A stretch of DNA of 64,000 bases from the IMG/VR virus record IMGVR_UViG_3300023198_000559, positions 1-64,000 of that record; one strand, 5' to 3'. Below the pieces are notes generated by a model that made no database searches, had not been told where the DNA came from, and saw only the letters and a program-made list of their open reading frames with translations. This stretch comes from a virus. Below, in pieces: positions 1,209-27,514 of this stretch (position 1 is the first letter of the stretch; every line of letters begins with the position of its first letter). Both the position numbers and the translations under genes were made by a program.

Positions 1209-1210
1209 AG

Positions 1211-1283
1211 CAGTCCATACGAGAGTCGAACTCGCTCCATACTCATAGACAGTGAGATATCTTAACCATTTGACCTATGGACT
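1211..1283 (-). tRNA. tRNA-Asp(GTC)
   Basis: AGTCCAT/ATGGACT acceptor, CT-GTC-TA loop, TTCGACT T-loop. Confidence 0.9.
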
Positions 1284-1287
1284 GTGT

Positions 1288-1323
1288 GAAAATAAAGGGA
1301 GACTCATCTAGAATAATCTCCCT
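1288..1323 (-). terminator. intrinsic terminator-like hairpin upstream of tRNA-Asp
   Basis: AGGGAGAT...GTCTCCCT followed by TTATTTT on the minus strand. Confidence 0.55.
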
Positions 1324-1444
1324 GGGCTGTTTTTTAATGCTGAGCAACTTCAGGCTCTTTCATCTAGAATTCCCTTTGTGTAACCACCGTTACAACGGGT
1401 TGTGGAGTCGGGCCACACGATACAGTGGGGATCACCCCGACATA

Positions 1445-1522
1445 TGGAGCGCAATGTGAGATTCGAACTCACGACCCTCTACTTGGAAGGAAGACGCTCT
1501 GACCGGACTGAGCTAATTACGC
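1445..1522 (-). tRNA. tRNA-Gly(TCC), CCA encoded
   Basis: GCGTAAT/ATTGCGC-T-CCA acceptor, CT-TCC-AA loop. Confidence 0.9.
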
Positions 1523-1530
1523 TTGTATTG

Positions 1531-1605
1531 TACTCTCTGCTGGATTTGAACCAGCGACTTCCCACTTGTAAGGAGGGCACTCTTCCCGGGCTGAGTTAAG
1601 AGAGC
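1531..1605 (-). tRNA. tRNA-Val(TAC)
   Basis: GCTCTCT/AGAGAGT acceptor, CT-TAC-AA loop, TTCAAAT T-loop. Confidence 0.9.
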
Positions 1606-1639
1606 AGGAGCACTTTATTAAGGTCAAAGTGCGAAAACC

Positions 1640-1716
1640 TGGTGGCGGGGACGGGAATTGAACCCGCAATTAAGAGTTTATGAGACTCTCCTGTTACCAA
1701 TTACATGCACCCCGCG
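1640..1716 (-). tRNA. tRNA-Met(CAT), initiator-like acceptor, CCA encoded
   Basis: CGCGGGG/CCCCGCC with C1:C72 mismatch; CT-CAT-AA loop; lacks the three G-C anticodon-stem pairs typical of fMet. Confidence 0.85.
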
Positions 1717-1732
1717 GTGTAAAGTTAATAAT

Positions 1733-2377
1733 TTATTTTAAATTACGATACATTTCTTCTACATTAAGGTGTAGATCATCTAATGAACCTGTATTCTCGA
1801 TTATATAATCGAATTTTTCGTAGTCATCTAAAGATATTTCAGAAGGATGCTGGTCTATTACTACAGTAGGACGATTGACACGAATGACAACGCCTCCTCT
1901 AGCTCTAATAGCATCTGCTTCATTAGGAAACCTTACATCTGTGATTATCCAGTTAGGATAAGCATCAGCTATAGTAGTTCCACCTTTGACATTTGGTACA
2001 CGTCGTAGTTTTAGTTCATATTCTGAAAATAAAGCGTTTACCCAGCACTGAGGATGTAACTGTCTCCCCATCTCTGTACCTATTTTCTGTAGCATTTCTC
2101 TACCGGTTAAAGTGTGTCCATCAAATTCCCAGAGATTACTTAAAGGATAAGCTTTAAACTCTTGATTTTCGAATTCTTCTACATCTATACCCGTAAGTAA
2201 GGAAGCTACTTGTTTAACCTTATATGCAAATTTTTTAATTGTATAGTAAGGTAATGTTATTCCATCTTGTCTGAGACCTTCTAGAACTTTTATGGGAGTG
2301 GCTAATTTTTGAATAGTTTCTCCAACTTCGTCTTTACCAGATCCCATTTTACCAGATATTCCTATTAGGTTTACCAT
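1733..2377 (-). CDS. deoxynucleoside monophosphate kinase
   Basis: GISGKMGSGKD P-loop, RxxLQxxGTE, IITDVRFPNE, HPSE motifs. Confidence 0.9.
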   Translation of the reverse strand: MVNLIGISGKMGSGKDEVGETIQKLATPIKVLEGLRQDGITLPYYTIKKFAYKVKQVASLLTGIDVEEFENQEFKAYPLSNLWEFDGHTLTGREMLQKIGTEMGRQLHPQCWVNALFSEYELKLRRVPNVKGGTTIADAYPNWIITDVRFPNEADAIRARGGVVIRVNRPTVVIDQHPSEISLDDYEKFDYIIENTGSLDDLHLNVEEMYRNLK

Positions 2378-2769
2378 TAATCATTGTTTTCAATCAGTTC
2401 GTTAAATGCGTCAAGCAAATCCATACTCTGTGTAAGACCTGCATTGTCATCTAATAATAAATTAAAGAAAGGTTTTCTAACTGTAGGGTCTTCATAGAGT
2501 GTTGATTTGTTTACTGCATCAAATTCTATTCCATATACCTCTTCAGCGATAGTAAGTTTATACTGGATACTCCAGTCATTTGCTACTGTCCATAAACATA
2601 AGTCTACTTTAGTCCTTACTTTATGTATTAATTCTCTTACACGCTCACATCTCTTAACGATGCGTGGGTCAGTGTTTAAGGGATAGATCGTATTATCAAA
2701 ATCTAAACCTACAACAATACCTCCGTGCGTTTTGTAAGTATTAACTAGTTTTTCAAGTTCACAATTCAT
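2377..2769 (-). CDS. HAD-superfamily hydrolase
   Basis: GLDFDNTI motif I, LWT, LLDD motif IV. Confidence 0.75.
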   Translation of the reverse strand: MNCELEKLVNTYKTHGGIVVGLDFDNTIYPLNTDPRIVKRCERVRELIHKVRTKVDLCLWTVANDWSIQYKLTIAEEVYGIEFDAVNKSTLYEDPTVRKPFFNLLLDDNAGLTQSMDLLDAFNELIENND

Positions 2770-2790
2770 ATGCTTAGTTTAAAATATTAG

Positions 2791-2861
2791 TGGAATCAGA
2801 TAGAGTCGACCTATCGTCCCCGGGTCTTCAATCCGGTGCTAAACCCCTCAGCTACAATTCC
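2791..2861 (-). tRNA. tRNA-Phe(GAA)
   Basis: GGAATTG/TGATTCC acceptor, TT-GAA-GA loop, variant T-loop GTCGACT. Confidence 0.85.
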
Positions 2862-2864
2862 ATT

Positions 2865-2997
2865 TGGTACCTTCTTATCCTAGGCGTAAGACTGGGGTGC
2901 TCCCAGGCGCCAGTGATGTTAGAAAAGCCAGACCCTCTATAGCTTCGTCTTCCTCTTACGTAGAAAACTTTACCAGATGCTGTCGATAGTGGTACCA
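2865..2997 (-). ncRNA. unidentified structured RNA between tRNA-Ile and tRNA-Phe
   Basis: TGGTACC/GGTACCA closing stem, CGTAAGA/TCTTACG inner stem, two hairpins; no ORF. Confidence 0.45.
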
Positions 2998-3002
2998 TAC
3001 TG

Positions 3003-3076
3003 TAGTCTATGCAGGATTTGAACCTACGACATACTCCGTATCAGGGAGGCGCTCTACCAAGCTGAGCTAATAGACT
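3003..3076 (-). tRNA. tRNA-Ile(GAT)
   Basis: AGTCTAT/ATAGACT acceptor, CT-GAT-AC loop. Confidence 0.92.
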
Positions 3077-3146
3077 ATAAAGCCCCGTTGTGTTCTTCCT
3101 TACTACACGAGGCGACATAATAACGTACGTCTGACGATTGTTTTTG

Positions 3147-3219
3147 TAGGACCGGAAGGACTTGCACCTTCTCCCTTCCGCTTAAAAGGCGGAAGCTCCC
3201 CTTGTTGAGCTACGATCCC
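3147..3219 (-). tRNA. tRNA-Lys(TTT)
   Basis: GGGATCG/CGGTCCT acceptor, CT-TTT-AA loop, variant T-loop TGCAAGT. Confidence 0.88.
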
Positions 3220-3477
3220 TTAAATCTTATCGGGGTCGTGTTTACTTTCTTGATTTTTCATGTTTTCTTCTATTAATTTTAAAGTTTCAATACTATTCAT
3301 TAGAGTTGTTGCATCTTTGATGTCCCAATAGTGGTCACAGTTAGCAGCCATACCATCTAAACTATCTGATGTAAAGGTGCTATATGATTGCCTCCAGGGG
3401 TTGGGAACTGCTCTGTATCTAAAGCAATTCATTCTTAACGTGCAGGTTTTATCTGCACACATTGATATATCAGGCAT
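3220..3477 (-). CDS. Cys-rich hypothetical phage protein
   Basis: MPDISMC..C...C.RY pattern. Confidence 0.75.
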   Translation of the reverse strand: MPDISMCADKTCTLRMNCFRYRAVPNPWRQSYSTFTSDSLDGMAANCDHYWDIKDATTLMNSIETLKLIEENMKNQESKHDPDKI

Positions 3478-3480
3478 ATT

Positions 3481-3747
3481 TTAATGGCTAAAATGTTGTA
3501 CAATAAATTGAATTTTTCCATATACAGAGTGGGAATTATGATCCACTTCATACCAAGCTCTTATAAATTTAGCCCATAATGAACCTGGGTCATCAGCATA
3601 AATAAAATCACCACTCATGTTGGGTCGAGGGATCCGATACTTACCTAAACGTAGTTCATCGGGTTCCTCTTCCATATTTCTAGATTGGCTAACAAAGAAT
3701 TCCCAGGCTTCTGGATGTTTTTCTTTATTACTCTCTTTCTTATTCAT
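3481..3747 (-). CDS. hypothetical protein
   Basis: ORF with A-rich leader. Confidence 0.7.
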   Translation of the reverse strand: MNKKESNKEKHPEAWEFFVSQSRNMEEEPDELRLGKYRIPRPNMSGDFIYADDPGSLWAKFIRAWYEVDHNSHSVYGKIQFIVQHFSH

Positions 3748-3762
3748 TTTTTTGTTGTTTTG

Positions 3763-3836
3763 TGGGCCCTGCAGGGGATGATCCTGCGACCTTCTGGTTA
3801 TGAGCCAGCTGCTCCGACCAATTGAGCTAAAGGCCC
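3763..3836 (-). tRNA. tRNA(CAT), most likely Ile2 (lysidine type, reads ATA)
   Basis: GGGCCTT/AGGGCCC acceptor resembling bacterial Ile2 tRNAs; CT-CAT-AA loop; Ile2 versus elongator Met identity is inferred. Confidence 0.8.
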
Positions 3837-3837
3837 A

Positions 3838-4071
3838 TTAAATTTTATAAATGTCGTGAGAGTATCTATTTACTCCATTATTAGTAGTATAAGTTTTACC
3901 TGAGTAAGTATATGTATGAGTAGGTGGTTCACCTTTCTTTAAACATCTTACCATTTTAGGAGTAAAACCTGCTACTGTACCTCTCATTAAAGAGGAATTA
4001 GCTGAAGGATTATAAATTATCTCGTCGCCAATCTTTAAGTCGTTACCTTCAAAATCTACATGTATTCCCAT
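3838..4071 (-). CDS. hypothetical protein
   Basis: Start MGIHVDF coupled by TAATG to the upstream stop. Confidence 0.65.
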   Translation of the reverse strand: MGIHVDFEGNDLKIGDEIIYNPSANSSLMRGTVAGFTPKMVRCLKKGEPPTHTYTYSGKTYTTNNGVNRYSHDIYKI

Positions 4072-4310
4072 TATTCTACTGTTAAAACGTAAACTGAGTA
4101 TGTCGTTGTGACTACAGTTGATTTTTCGTTTAGAACTTGTAGTTTTGTTACTACAGATGTTGACCATAAACCTTTACCTTCTTCAACAACTGGAAAACGT
4201 TGCCTTAAAACAGGAAAGTCGCTAAATTCAATCTTGTGATCTTCACCTACAGTGTTATAATCACTAATTTCATCTATTACTTCTACTTTTGTTATTATTC
4301 CTTTTATCAT
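4071..4310 (-). CDS. hypothetical protein
   Basis: ORF with A-rich leader. Confidence 0.7.
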   Translation of the reverse strand: MIKGIITKVEVIDEISDYNTVGEDHKIEFSDFPVLRQRFPVVEEGKGLWSTSVVTKLQVLNEKSTVVTTTYSVYVLTVE

Positions 4311-4325
4311 TTGTTTGTTGTTTAG

Positions 4326-4398
4326 AACATCCTATAGGATTCGAACCTATAACCATAGACTTAGAAGATCCACGCTCTTCCAATTGAGCTAAGGATGC
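4326..4398 (-). tRNA. tRNA-Arg(TCT)
   Basis: GCATCCT/AGGATGT acceptor, CT-TCT-AA loop. Confidence 0.9.
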
Positions 4399-4535
4399 TT
4401 GTCATTTATTTGTCTTATAATTTCTCTTTTTTCTGCAGCTCTTTCTTTTCCCCAAAAGAACTTTCTACCTACTTTACGCATGTGTTTAGCCCATTCATTA
4501 GGCTTTGTTAAATTACCTTTCTTTACTGTTCCCAT
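4389..4535 (-). CDS. small basic protein (48 aa; not in ORF track)
   Basis: MGTVKKGNLTKPNEWAKHMRKVGRKFFWGKERAAEKREIIRQINDKHP*; fills the inter-tRNA gap. Confidence 0.6.
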   Translation of the reverse strand: MGTVKKGNLTKPNEWAKHMRKVGRKFFWGKERAAEKREIIRQINDKHP

Positions 4536-4537
4536 AG

Positions 4538-4609
4538 AGTCAAACCTAGGAATCGAACCCAGTTATCAGGTTTACAAAACCCGCGCATCGCCAGCAATGC
4601 TTGTAAGAC
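4538..4609 (-). tRNA. tRNA-Thr(TGT)
   Basis: CGGGT-TT-TGT-AA-ACCTG arm; two T:T mismatches in the acceptor. Confidence 0.8.
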
Positions 4610-4614
4610 TTGTG

Positions 4615-4687
4615 CACACCCTGAAAGATTCGAACTCTCTACTACTGGGTTTGGAAGCCAGTATCCTACCCAGAGGATCTAAGATGC
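4615..4687 (-). tRNA. tRNA-Trp(CCA)
   Basis: GCATCTT/AGGGTGT-G acceptor, TT-CCA-AA loop. Confidence 0.82.
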
Positions 4688-4695
4688 GTGTGTTG

Positions 4696-4768
4696 CTGAC
4701 CTTTATGGATTCGAACCAGAATCTACCCGATTAACAGTCGGGAGCTTTACCAATTAAGCTAAAAGTCA
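4696..4768 (-). tRNA. tRNA-Asn(GTT)
   Basis: TGACTTT/AAGGTCA-G acceptor, CT-GTT-AA loop. Confidence 0.9.
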
Positions 4769-4803
4769 GTGTTACTTCAATACGTCAATGTACTTATTAT
4801 TAG

Positions 4804-4870
4804 TTGGGACAACAGGGCTCGAACCTATGACCTCCCTCTTCAGGCGCTCTACCCACTGAGCTACATCCCG
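4804..4870 (-). ncRNA. tRNA-like RNA with collapsed anticodon arm (or pseudo-tRNA)
   Basis: Intact acceptor, D and T arms; anticodon arm is only CCT-GAAG-AGG. Confidence 0.75.
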
Positions 4871-4931
4871 AAGTACTAGTTTTATTACTCGAGTTTTTAC
4901 TAGTACTTACTATTACCTTGCGATAATAATG

Positions 4932-5006
4932 TGGAGAGTAAGGGAATTGAACCCTTGGACTCCTGGTTGCAAACCAGGTGCATTAGCCAACGCATGCTTA
5001 AACCCC
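4932..5006 (-). tRNA. tRNA-Ala(TGC)
   Basis: G3:U70 pair, CCTGG-TT-TGC-AA-CCAGG arm. Confidence 0.85.
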
Positions 5007-5012
5007 ATTATT

Positions 5013-5225
5013 TTATTCTTGTTGTGACTGCTCGTATGCTAGTCTATCTTGTTCATACTGTTCTTCTCTTTCTTGTTGTCTTTCTTCTTCTCTTCTTGCT
5101 TCTGCGTATCTTTCTTCTCTTTCGTATCTTTCCGGGTCCTCATCATAATACTCCTGCTCTTGTCTGATTGAGCGAATCATATCTACAGGCATTATACAGC
5201 CTGTTGGGAATTCTGGTCTTGCCAT
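5013..5225 (-). CDS. small highly charged (E/R/Q/Y) protein, first gene behind the attenuator
   Basis: ORF starts 14 nt after the terminator U-tract. Confidence 0.7.
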   Translation of the reverse strand: MARPEFPTGCIMPVDMIRSIRQEQEYYDEDPERYEREERYAEARREEERQQEREEQYEQDRLAYEQSQQE

Positions 5226-5239
5226 AGTTTTTAGTCATT

Positions 5240-5269
5240 AAAAAACCCCTACTGAATTAACAGCAGGGG
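5240..5269 (-). terminator. intrinsic terminator of the tRNA-operon attenuator
   Basis: CCCCTGCTG-TTAATT-CAGTAGGGG followed by T6. Confidence 0.9.
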
Positions 5270-5301
5270 TTATACCAGGTTGGGTATAGTACTGCTGTTA
5301 A
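5257..5301 (-). promoter_or_regulatory. antiterminator helix
   Basis: TTAACAGCAG (5301-5292) pairs perfectly with CTGCTGTTAA (5266-5257, terminator 5' arm and loop); inner helix TATACC/GGTATA. Confidence 0.8.
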
Positions 5302-5360
5302 GTGGCCATATCTACGGCCCCCTTAAACGTTCTTGCAATATTTATACACCAATTTTTCAT
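5298..5360 (-). CDS. attenuator leader peptide MKNWCINIARTFKGAVDMAT
   Basis: 20 codons; stop codon lies inside the antiterminator 5' strand; codons mirror the downstream tRNA set. Confidence 0.8.
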   Translation of the reverse strand: MKNWCINIARTFKGAVDMAT

Positions 5361-5375
5361 AATCTTATTATTTTG

Positions 5376-5450
5376 TACTCCCGACGAGACTTGAACTCGC
5401 AATCTCCAGGTTGAAAGCCTGACGGCCTACTCCAATTAGCCTACGGGAGC
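5376..5450 (-). tRNA. tRNA-Glu(TTC)
   Basis: GCTCCCG/CGGGAGT acceptor, CT-TTC-AA loop. Confidence 0.9.
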
Positions 5451-5508
5451 AGATCTCCTCTACAGGTTCATTTAAAGTACGGTTTGTGTCAGAATTTTTC
5501 ATAAGTTT

Positions 5509-5538
5509 CAAAGTTAATACAATTATAGTTTAATCCAA
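5509..5538 (-). promoter_or_regulatory. Bacteroidota housekeeping-sigma promoter driving the tRNA array
   Basis: TTG-N19-TAACTTTG. Confidence 0.75.
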
Positions 5539-5725
5539 TAGAAGTGAGGACAATTTTTACATTTAAATTTATAGCCTTTATAAATATCAGAGGCTACGAG
5601 CTTAAATGTGTGTAATCGACACTGCTTGGTTTTCATAAGTGTTTCGTATGTAGTCCTCAGATGCTCTTAAACTAAACCAGTTTTCGACACCTTTGGGCTT
5701 TAAAATTTTAAAGATCCACTCTTCT

Positions 5726-6274
5726 TCATCGTAAGAAGATTGAGTAATCGTCATTTGGGTTGTAGTTATTCTTAACTGCATTATATTTTGGGTTAGGTGT
5801 AGAATATACAACTTTATTGGTTATTTCACAACAAGGATTTTTAACAATAGAAGTACCAGGTACAGCATGTCCATACCACATTCTATCTTCTATCTCCTGC
5901 AATACTTTCTTATCTTCTTTAGAATAAGGCTTAACATAGTGATTTTCTTTCGAATAACCTCTTACATGAGCTGCAAATGATTCATCTGGATAAGCATCTT
6001 CTGGAGTTACAGGATACTTCATTAAGTGTTCTGCATAATCTTCAACTGTATTTTCTGCTATAACAAAGTCAGCTAATTCTTTAATTAAAGCTGGATCGTA
6101 TACTCCTCTTCCATCTACATCTTCATATAAATATTGGTATAAAGAAGCTTTGATGCCTTTTACAATGCCATCTCCTTCACAGAAATAACAGTCATCAGCT
6201 GGGTCCATTTCTGGATCCTCTACACCTAACCCCTCACAATGTGGGCAGGTTACTTTTCCGGGGTCTTGTTCCAT
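5726..6274 (-). CDS. protein with DnaJ-type CxxCxGxG zinc finger
   Basis: CPHCEGLG, CYFCEGDG. Confidence 0.7.
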   Translation of the reverse strand: MEQDPGKVTCPHCEGLGVEDPEMDPADDCYFCEGDGIVKGIKASLYQYLYEDVDGRGVYDPALIKELADFVIAENTVEDYAEHLMKYPVTPEDAYPDESFAAHVRGYSKENHYVKPYSKEDKKVLQEIEDRMWYGHAVPGTSIVKNPCCEITNKVVYSTPNPKYNAVKNNYNPNDDYSIFLR

Positions 6275-6710: not shown

Positions 6711-6949
6711 CTTCCGTCTATTAAAATGTATTCCCATGGATAAAAAGTATAGAAATTAACTCCGTTCTCAGTACCCACAAATTGATTTGATAGAGCATTT
6801 TCTTCTTTTGCTGAGGCTATAAGAGGGAACGTACTGTTTAACAGTGAGTGGTTCCCTTTATAATGCCTAGCTAGCTCTTTAAATGTACTAGTGAGAGATA
6901 ACGATGTTTCCACCGTTAAGTTCTCTAAATCTAGCGTAACTCCTTCCAT
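6707..6949 (-). CDS. hypothetical protein
   Basis: Translationally coupled ORF. Confidence 0.6.
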   Translation of the reverse strand: MEGVTLDLENLTVETSLSLTSTFKELARHYKGNHSLLNSTFPLIASAKEENALSNQFVGTENGVNFYTFYPWEYILIDGR

Positions 6950-7191
6950 TAGTCATTCAAGAAGGACTTGATTTTCTCTGCAACTTTCTTATTAGCATCA
7001 AATTGTGTTTGTAATTCTATGCCTAATCTTTGTTCTTTCATAGCAGCTGCTTTAAAAGCAGCCTCTGCAATTCCTCTTGCAGTTTGTTCTTTGACAACCT
7101 CTTTATTAAGGGCTTCTAAATTAGTAACTGTCTTTGAAAATACAGACAGGATGTTAGCAGATTTCTGCTTAAGTTTTGTTACTTTACTCAT
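6949..7191 (-). CDS. coiled-coil hypothetical protein
   Basis: ORF with heptad pattern. Confidence 0.7.
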   Translation of the reverse strand: MSKVTKLKQKSANILSVFSKTVTNLEALNKEVVKEQTARGIAEAAFKAAAMKEQRLGIELQTQFDANKKVAEKIKSFLND

Positions 7192-10401: not shown

Positions 10402-10428
10402 AAAAAAGGGAAGATTTCTCCTCCCTTT
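10402..10428 (-). terminator. intrinsic terminator
   Basis: AAAGGGAGGAGAAATCTTCCC followed by TTTTTT. Confidence 0.6.
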
Positions 10429-11365: not shown

Positions 11366-11418
11366 AAAGAAAAAGCCCAGGATTATTCCCGGGCTCTAAA
11401 ACTAGGTAAATGAAACTC

Positions 11419-26970: not shown

Positions 26971-27125
26971 TGGATATAATTTAAGTGAAACATTTATTTA
27001 GTAAAAGAATCAGATAGAGGCTATTGGGGCCTACTTCCGGAGCCAATATTCACTGTTTTATCTCTCAGTTCCCAATCTTATGGCATTCCATCAACAGAGG
27101 CTTTTGCGCGTGTCTGATTCTTTAG

Positions 27126-27514
27126 TGGAGATGCAGGGAGTCGAACCCTGGTCCACAATGTATTAAATACACATGATATACAAGTTTGTAGGGCCAGCTC
27201 AACTGCTGACGGTCCACCACTTAGTCTTTTTATGAACTAAGAAACACTCTCTAGTTGTTATCGTATATAAATATACAGTGAGATGCAGAGTATTCTCGTA
27301 CACGCTATTCTGTTTCTAGGTTAACGTAGAACCCAAGCACTCATGAAACCTAATTACTATTAAGCTGCAATACGCATCTCATACTGAGCTACAGGTGCAA
27401 TAGAAATAACTTTCGTTTCTCCATTTATTAAAGTGATACGTTTTTAATGTGTCTCATATCATCACATACTTGCATGTAGTACTGAATATCATCATGTCAA
27501 ATCCAGTCATCCCC
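27126..27514 (-). ncRNA. ssrA: tmRNA
   Basis: 5' GGGGATGACTGGATTTGAC; 3' GACCAGGGTTCGACTCCCTGCATCTCCA (G3:U70); tag frame ATAAAT-GGA...GCA GCT TAA TAG. Confidence 0.93.

Follow-up and report, generated by a model that had tools for sequence, protein, structure and literature searches.

Leader-peptide attenuators have been well described for amino acid operons (trpL, hisL, leuL, pheL), and the multivalent leaders of thrL and ilvGMEDA sense more than one amino acid. In attenuation of the trp/his type, a ribosome that reaches the stop codon of the leader favours termination, whereas a stalled ribosome favours read-through. The T-box riboswitches, found mainly in Firmicutes, bind one uncharged tRNA directly, need no translation and control synthetase and amino acid genes. 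Here we describe a 20-codon open reading frame (ORF) and an intrinsic terminator that precede a tRNA array on the minus strand of an uncultured marine phage (IMG/VR record IMGVR_UViG_3300023198_000559). The window, that is, the whole stretch of DNA analysed, comprises bases 1-64000 of this linear 79,995-nt record, which is estimated to be 84% complete. With a probability of roughly two in three, the element is a ribosome-mediated transcription attenuator that gates the phage tRNA array by the decoding speed of the array's own codons. An attenuator whose leader samples the downstream tRNAs had been proposed in the original prediction, made from the DNA letters alone. Several details of that proposal are off, whereas its core is supported because the statistics of the locus, the folding of its RNA at different ribosome positions, the occurrence of three phage lineages of like build and the co-variation observed in one of them all agree with it.

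Like the trp/his attenuators, the locus combines a short and presumably translated leader ORF with 1:2, 2:3 and 3:4 alternative helices and an intrinsic terminator. It differs from them in that the genes to be regulated are tRNAs and a few phage proteins, not biosynthetic enzymes, and in that 12-13 tRNA species are each represented in the leader by one or two codons, with no runs. It is also phage-encoded, and the product that would relieve the stall is tRNA itself. The control of termination in response to the state of tRNA would be shared with T-box riboswitches, but the design found here appears to be translation-dependent, and no Rfam T-box match was obtained.

The nearest system in print is the trn operon of Anabaena sp. 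PCC 7120, an accessory array of 26 tRNAs with low expression until translational stress induces it (PMC8421152, PMC10272220). This operon is controlled at the promoter via direct repeats and the repressor TrcR, and no leader peptide, attenuation or terminator is mentioned for it (PMC8421152, PMC10272220). The two systems are alike in being accessory tRNA arrays induced, or in the phage probably induced, when translation is impaired, and the difference lies in the promoter control of the Anabaena operon. Literature searches revealed no published leader peptide or attenuator ahead of tRNA genes, in line with the original prediction, whose author knew of no prior description; the recurrent phage design of leader-gated tRNA arrays is apparently unpublished.

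Architecture of the leader and terminator

In the direction of transcription, the locus contains the following features:

5375-5450, minus strand: tRNA-Glu(UUC), located before the leader and not part of the gated unit (ARAGORN; Rfam, 62 bits)
5298-5360, minus strand: leader ORF, with ATG at 5360, TAA at 5300-5298 and 20 sense codons, sampling 13 of 13 downstream tRNAs
5280-5352, minus strand: long leader hairpin (putative anti-antiterminator), present in the minimum-free-energy and centroid folds
5292-5301, minus strand: antiterminator 5' arm TTAACAGCAG, containing the stop codon at 5300-5298
5271-5288, minus strand: small hairpin TATACC / GGTATA, enclosed by the antiterminator
5257-5266, minus strand: antiterminator 3' arm CTGCTGTTAA, formed by the 5' arm and loop of the terminator
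5240-5271, minus strand: intrinsic terminator, with a hairpin at 5271-5244 (11-bp stem with 6 G-C pairs, 6-nt loop) and T6
5013-5225, minus strand: 70-amino-acid Glu/Arg-rich ORF, the first gene behind the terminator, with no family match
1210-5006, minus strand: gated unit of 13 tRNAs, one tRNA-like gene and interspersed protein genes

The upstream tRNA-Glu, the ORF with its start and stop, the terminator and the three sets of pairings listed or described here had all been read correctly from the sequence. An A-rich spacer of 14 nt separates tRNA-Glu from the leader ORF; the region upstream of the ORF is unpaired and lacks a Shine-Dalgarno sequence. The start codon is accessible, as the first 23 nt, AUG included, are unpaired in the minimum-free-energy structure. 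In the long hairpin, the outer helix pairs codons 4-9 with the region of the antiterminator 5' arm, while the inner one is the TTAAG..GGCC / GGCC.CTTAA helix. The ribosome-free fold consists of this hairpin and the terminator (-41.6 kcal/mol; z = -3.8 against dinucleotide shuffles).

The two antiterminator arms, TTAACAGCAG and CTGCTGTTAA, are perfect 10-bp complements. A complement of at least 10 bp was seldom seen when the upstream 103 nt were shuffled (p = 0.00095; 20,000 dinucleotide shuffles). The hairpin at 5271-5244 is the strongest terminator-like hairpin of the entire 79,995-nt contig (-18.5 kcal/mol). The ATG of the 70-amino-acid ORF lies about 15 nt past the T-run, leaving no room for a promoter between the terminator and the next gene.

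A structured 3' trailer or a small RNA, derived from the tRNA-Glu precursor, ending at the terminator and having a function of its own (sponge, processing signal), might be considered here, given that the element begins 14 nt past the 3' end of tRNA-Glu and is as strongly folded as its z-score indicates. This explanation is very improbable: it leaves both the placement of the stop codon and the codon coverage described below unexplained, no Rfam family was found above chance level, and the element is not repeated elsewhere in the genome. In the Rfam scan neither a T-box nor any other RNA family was found beyond tRNA, the best match over the element being NsiR1 at a chance-level E of 0.68. A 12-nt repeat, TTATGAAAAATT, found at 5504-5493 and 5362-5351, was considered and discarded, as its occurrence is at chance level (E = 1).

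Codon content of the leader and the tRNA array

The tRNA genes of the gated unit are those for Ala, Asn, Trp, Thr, Arg, Ile2, Lys, Ile, Phe, an initiator-like Met, Val, Gly and Asp. By strict wobble rules, at least one leader codon is available for each of these 13 tRNAs, as had been claimed. Such 13/13 coverage is rarely reached by random sets of 19 codons that follow the codon usage of the phage (p = 1e-5) or by open frames generated under a hexamer-Markov null (p = 4.7e-6). Among the 1039 frames of the genome that consist of an ATG and 19 sense codons, the leader is the only one to reach 13, and one other reaches 12. At the amino acid level, the array serves 12 amino acids, and 19 of the 20 leader residues are among them (p = 3e-3 to 3e-4). 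The fit of 19 codons in 20 that was originally described, with the Cys codon TGT as the sole exception, therefore holds for amino acids, whereas strict wobble reads 16 of the 20 codons, leaving GCC (twice), ACT and TGT unread.

The gene set behind the terminator is somewhat larger than the 13 tRNAs that had been named, all of which were located, since it also includes protein genes and a 14th tRNA-model match (4804-4870, minus strand, 41.7 bits). The acceptor, D and T arms of this tRNA-like gene are normal, the anticodon arm is shortened to about 7 nt between two base pairs, and ARAGORN gives no call for it. No amino acid, Cys included, could be assigned to it. A search for tRNA-Cys elsewhere in the genome, proposed together with the original prediction, gave none among the tRNAs of the 79,995-nt record, in which all 15 tRNA-model matches fall in 1211-5450. 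The contig ends 1.2 kb beyond the last tRNA; since the array runs toward the contig end of a record only 84% complete, it may be cut.

Two of the tRNAs carry a CAT anticodon. One of them (3762-3836) is 76-80% identical, over its full length, to Escherichia coli genes annotated as tRNA-Ile, which supports its earlier assignment as Ile2. The other (1640-1716, minus strand) looks like an initiator: its 5' end is CGCGGGG, positions 1 and 72 are mismatched and the CCA is encoded in the gene, but the three G-C pairs of the anticodon stem are missing.

Folding of the leader with a ribosome in place

In order to place the ribosome relative to the switch, its footprint was masked at each A-site codon and the RNA was folded up to the terminator loop. 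In these in silico folds, the antiterminator (10 + 6 pairs) has the lowest free energy whenever the A-site lies at one of codons 2-17, and from codon 18 up to the stop its formation is blocked. Each of the 12 elongator species has a codon within codons 2-17, which is the stall window that leaves the antiterminator free, and the unmatched codons GCC19 and ACT20 fall in the non-sensing, helix-forming tail of the leader.

Similar loci in other phages

Short ORFs were ranked by their coverage of downstream tRNAs in the few array-bearing loci that had been fetched. The ORF directly before the terminator at the head of the array was ranked first in locus L089 and second in loci L018 and L026. These terminators were seen only after the ORFs had been picked, so the follow-up used rules independent of that choice. 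Under the pre-set rule, an ORF with its stop at most 95 nt upstream of a terminator was scored for its match to its own tRNA block and to others.

A family of T4-size marine phages, represented by 23 contigs (loci L018, L026, L096, L097, L103-L105 and L106-L138), shows a layout of a conserved promoter-like box, an ORF of 22-53 codons, an intrinsic terminator and then the tRNA array. Leaders of this family include:

L018, 17280-17348
L026, 20119-20187
L096, 1659-1754
L097, 1998-2156
L103, 368-457
L104, 358-447

The first tRNA lies 63-72 nt past the leader stop in all family contigs but one (146 nt). The arrays contain 13-25 genes, and leader length rises with array size, the longest leaders holding all 20 amino acids. 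Coverage of the own array is high throughout the family and in some cases complete (17/17, p < 2e-5; 15/15, p = 2e-4; 22/22, p = 0.003). The peptide is conserved at the amino acid level, and one Ser position alternates between AGC/AGT and TCT/TCG; such a switch of codon box at a conserved residue argues for translation of the family leader. A GenBank search with the L018 leader gave a match to tRNA-Asn only.

A segment near the ORF end that is complementary to the terminator 5' arm was found in 15 of the 20 distinct family leaders folded. In every leader of at least 29 codons, a segment of 8-10 nt, located 12-24 nt before the stop, pairs with this arm. The two co-vary within the family (GTTAGAGG with CCTCTAAC; GTCAGGG with CCCTGAC). 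Among the 22-codon leaders, the partner lies just past the stop in contigs G090 (10 nt) and G082 (4 nt), and the others have none of note.

Co-variation of leader and array, which had been suggested as a check, was analysed with a tree built from shared tRNA genes and with phylogenetically independent pairs of contigs of which only one has a given tRNA. The content of the leader changes in the direction of the tRNA in about 11 pairs and against it in about 0.3, with no difference in about 15 pairs (one-sided sign test, median p 0.001), the signal for Phe, Val and Lys riding partly on differences in leader length. For instance, Gly18 is replaced by Tyr in one lineage and Cys10 by Tyr in its sister, and both carry a tRNA-Tyr in first position; a Cys10-to-Tyr replacement is also found in two contigs that have tRNA-Tyr and no tRNA-Cys. 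Similarly, Ile is replaced by Asn in three contigs lacking tRNA-Ile. The expected co-variation was thus found in part, as there are also counter-examples: G033 and G100 lost tRNAs while their leaders stayed the same, leaders retain His where tRNA-His is absent, and Lys and Ala do not track the array. Strict tracking of the array by leaders of the L018 type is ruled out by these cases.

A second conserved element of about 120 nt is present upstream of the leader region in L081 (14743-14910), and also in L096, L097, L103 and L104; in L081 it consists of an open frame followed by hairpins.

The cultured Cellulophaga phage phi38:1 (KC821614, locus L139) contains three ORF-plus-terminator cassettes ahead of three tRNA blocks. 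Two of the leader ORFs are annotated as hypothetical proteins (gp066, gp070), and four of the tRNAs, called by ARAGORN, are not annotated in the record (CAT at 4675, Ser-tga at 5807, Pro at 6928 and Glu at 7009).

L139, 4070-4198, 5531-5699 and 6774-6918: the three cassettes
Block 1: tRNAs for Lys, Ile, Gly, a CAT tRNA, Asp, Thr, Val and Arg
Block 2: tRNAs for Ser, Ser, Asn and Phe
Block 3: tRNAs for Pro, Glu, Gln, His, Leu and Arg

The residues served by the leader's own block are 18 of 24, 13 of 28 and 17 of 28, as against 2/24 and 6/24, 6/28 and 4/28, and 8/28 and 3/28 for the other two blocks. A study of the phi38:1 infection transcriptome reported that the phage uses the host RNA polymerase; tRNA blocks and terminators are not discussed in it (PMC5335546). 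The third lineage, locus L089, shows the order tRNA, 38-codon ORF, terminator and 19 tRNAs, with coverage of 16 of 18 anticodons. When the ribosome mask was applied to the T4-size family, phi38:1 and L089, the same stall-window logic was seen, the pairing being weaker in L089 (4-5 pairs).

The design is therefore one that recurs in three unrelated phage lineages, with no sequence homology to the leader studied here. As in the loci of the L018 type, phi38:1 and L089, the order of the present locus is ORF, terminator and tRNA block, a segment at the ORF end is complementary to the terminator 5' arm, and the leader mirrors the block. In contrast to them, the present locus has an antiterminator arm that takes in the stop codon and a long anti-antiterminator hairpin extending over the ORF, and its gated unit starts with a protein gene.

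It might be supposed that the element is a real attenuator which senses translation in general (ribosome availability, host shut-off, ribosome-targeting toxins) or acts via the nascent peptide, as TnaC and SecM do, the amino acid match being secondary. This would fit the conserved order of the peptide in the T4-size family (HT.CS and W.G motifs), the counter-examples of His, G033 and G100, and the fact that any stall in codons 2-17 affects the fold alike. It would not explain why the family leaders follow the tRNA content through specific substitutions of Tyr, Cys and Ile, or why each of the three phi38:1 leaders matches its own block and not the other two. Moreover, the leader studied here has no similarity to the peptides of the T4-size family and of phi38:1. 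Such a general sensor is therefore an unlikely explanation.

Relatives of the locus and arguments against an attenuator

Relatives spanning 5190-5679 at about 84-91% identity were found in three marine or marine-sediment DNA runs (X1-X3). In two of them (X2 and X3), the homology breaks at 5229, about 10 nt past the terminator T-run, with a joint from 4957 to 5229, and the 70-amino-acid ORF is missing. Such a break just past the terminator suggests that the promoter, tRNA-Glu, leader and terminator may form a module with variable cargo. No RNA sequencing run was listed as holding the locus. The open frame across the leader, used as a protein query, gave no usable homologue.

The promoter of this putative module is a weak call:

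5509-5516, minus strand: promoter-like -7 box TAACTTTG, about 55 nt upstream of tRNA-Glu

This box is accompanied by only a partial TTG at the -33 position. The 'Bacteroidota promoter' that had been reported upstream of tRNA-Glu is this weak call, a single match to TAnnTTTG, a motif present 96 times in the genome against about 92 expected; not being enriched, it was dropped as promoter evidence.

Several points speak against control of the array by its leader. The codon match was noticed post hoc, in a scan of very many windows. The two GCC codons and ACT require relaxed U34 reading, and TGT has no matching tRNA in the sequenced part of the array. The leader offers one or two codons per tRNA without any runs, unlike classical leaders, in which the regulatory codon is repeated in runs. 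In the folds, the complete RNA is always more stable in the terminator state, so the switch must be kinetic; classical attenuators likewise depend on kinetic switching. The relatives in X1-X3 show 5-12 gap positions, known from summary tables that do not give the gap placement. No homologue of the locus was retrieved from IMG/VR (by neighbouring proteins and DNA patterns), from JGI metagenomes or from GenBank phages: the IMG/VR pattern matches were due to chance or to tRNA-Glu only, and both JGI matches to chance. Finally, two other terminators of the minus strand (11374 and 10407) lie between co-directional genes and also abut the next gene, without a leader ORF; counted from the first base of the T-run, the next start codon comes 9 nt later at 11374 and 38 nt later at 10407. 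The phage may thus read through terminators by another route, and these sites point to general leaky termination or antitermination in the operon.

Alternatively, the locus might be an ordinary intergenic terminator with a chance ORF: the hairpins would end or stabilise the tRNA-Glu transcript, downstream genes would be reached via leaky termination or general phage antitermination, and the codon match would be a coincidence found post hoc. This is favoured by the leaderless terminators, by the lack of homologues that could show conservation, by the number of windows scanned and by the fact that open frames of 20 codons are common at 37% G+C. Coincidence is nevertheless improbable, as it has to account for a coverage with p of about 5e-6 to 1e-5 in a frame unique among 1039, for an independent 10-bp antiterminator (p ~1e-3) that holds the stop codon, for matched codons falling exactly in the stall window, and for the occurrence of the same design in three unrelated lineages, one of which shows co-variation.

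Proposed mechanism

Translation of the leader, coupling of ribosome and polymerase, and conditional read-through are what we infer for the attenuator from the observed anatomy, statistics and recurrence in other phages. Transcription through tRNA-Glu would enter the 20-codon leader. With no ribosome on the leader, the long hairpin would sequester the antiterminator arm and the terminator would form; it would also form when a fast ribosome at the stop codon covers the arm, which contains this codon. A ribosome stalled in codons 2-17 would leave the arm free to pair with the terminator 5' arm, and the polymerase could then read into the 70-amino-acid ORF and the tRNA genes. Since each of the 12 downstream elongator species is represented at least once in codons 2-17, slow decoding of any of them should raise tRNA synthesis. 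The new tRNAs would relieve the stall, closing a negative feedback loop in which supply is driven by demand.

On a tentative and rather doubtful reading, the leader would be a multi-input OR gate on the tRNA pool, in which the loss of any of about a dozen host tRNAs, for example through anticodon nucleases, would induce the replacement tRNAs. Arrays gated in this way would then represent a widespread inducible device of counter-defence and homeostasis in phages. The anatomy that a counter-defence purpose would explain is also explained by a feedback on tRNA supply.

Phage tRNA arrays are usually seen as constitutive cargo for codon matching or for the replacement of cleaved host tRNAs. If the attenuator reading is true, a leader that samples the codons of its own array makes tRNA expression demand-driven, extends attenuation from amino acid supply to tRNA supply and represents a compact natural sensor with many inputs. 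It would also provide an annotation rule for the 'hypothetical' mini-ORFs adjoining phage tRNA genes. Phage phi38:1 is a cultured system open to test, and RNA sequencing data from its infection exist (PMC5335546).

Neighbouring genes

The genes neighbouring the locus encode ribonucleotide reductase, metallophosphoesterase, nucleoside deoxyribosyltransferase and dNMP kinase, the last being among the protein genes interspersed with the tRNAs of the gated unit. Upstream of tRNA-Glu, a 182-amino-acid ORF ends in a TGA (5706-5728, minus strand) that aligns with Arg in two Logan homologues, and the five in-frame codons past it (RRVDL) match the C-terminus of these homologues; the TGA could be a recent nonsense change, an error or a site of read-through. 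The phage also encodes a tmRNA with a 20-residue tag (27125-27514, minus strand).

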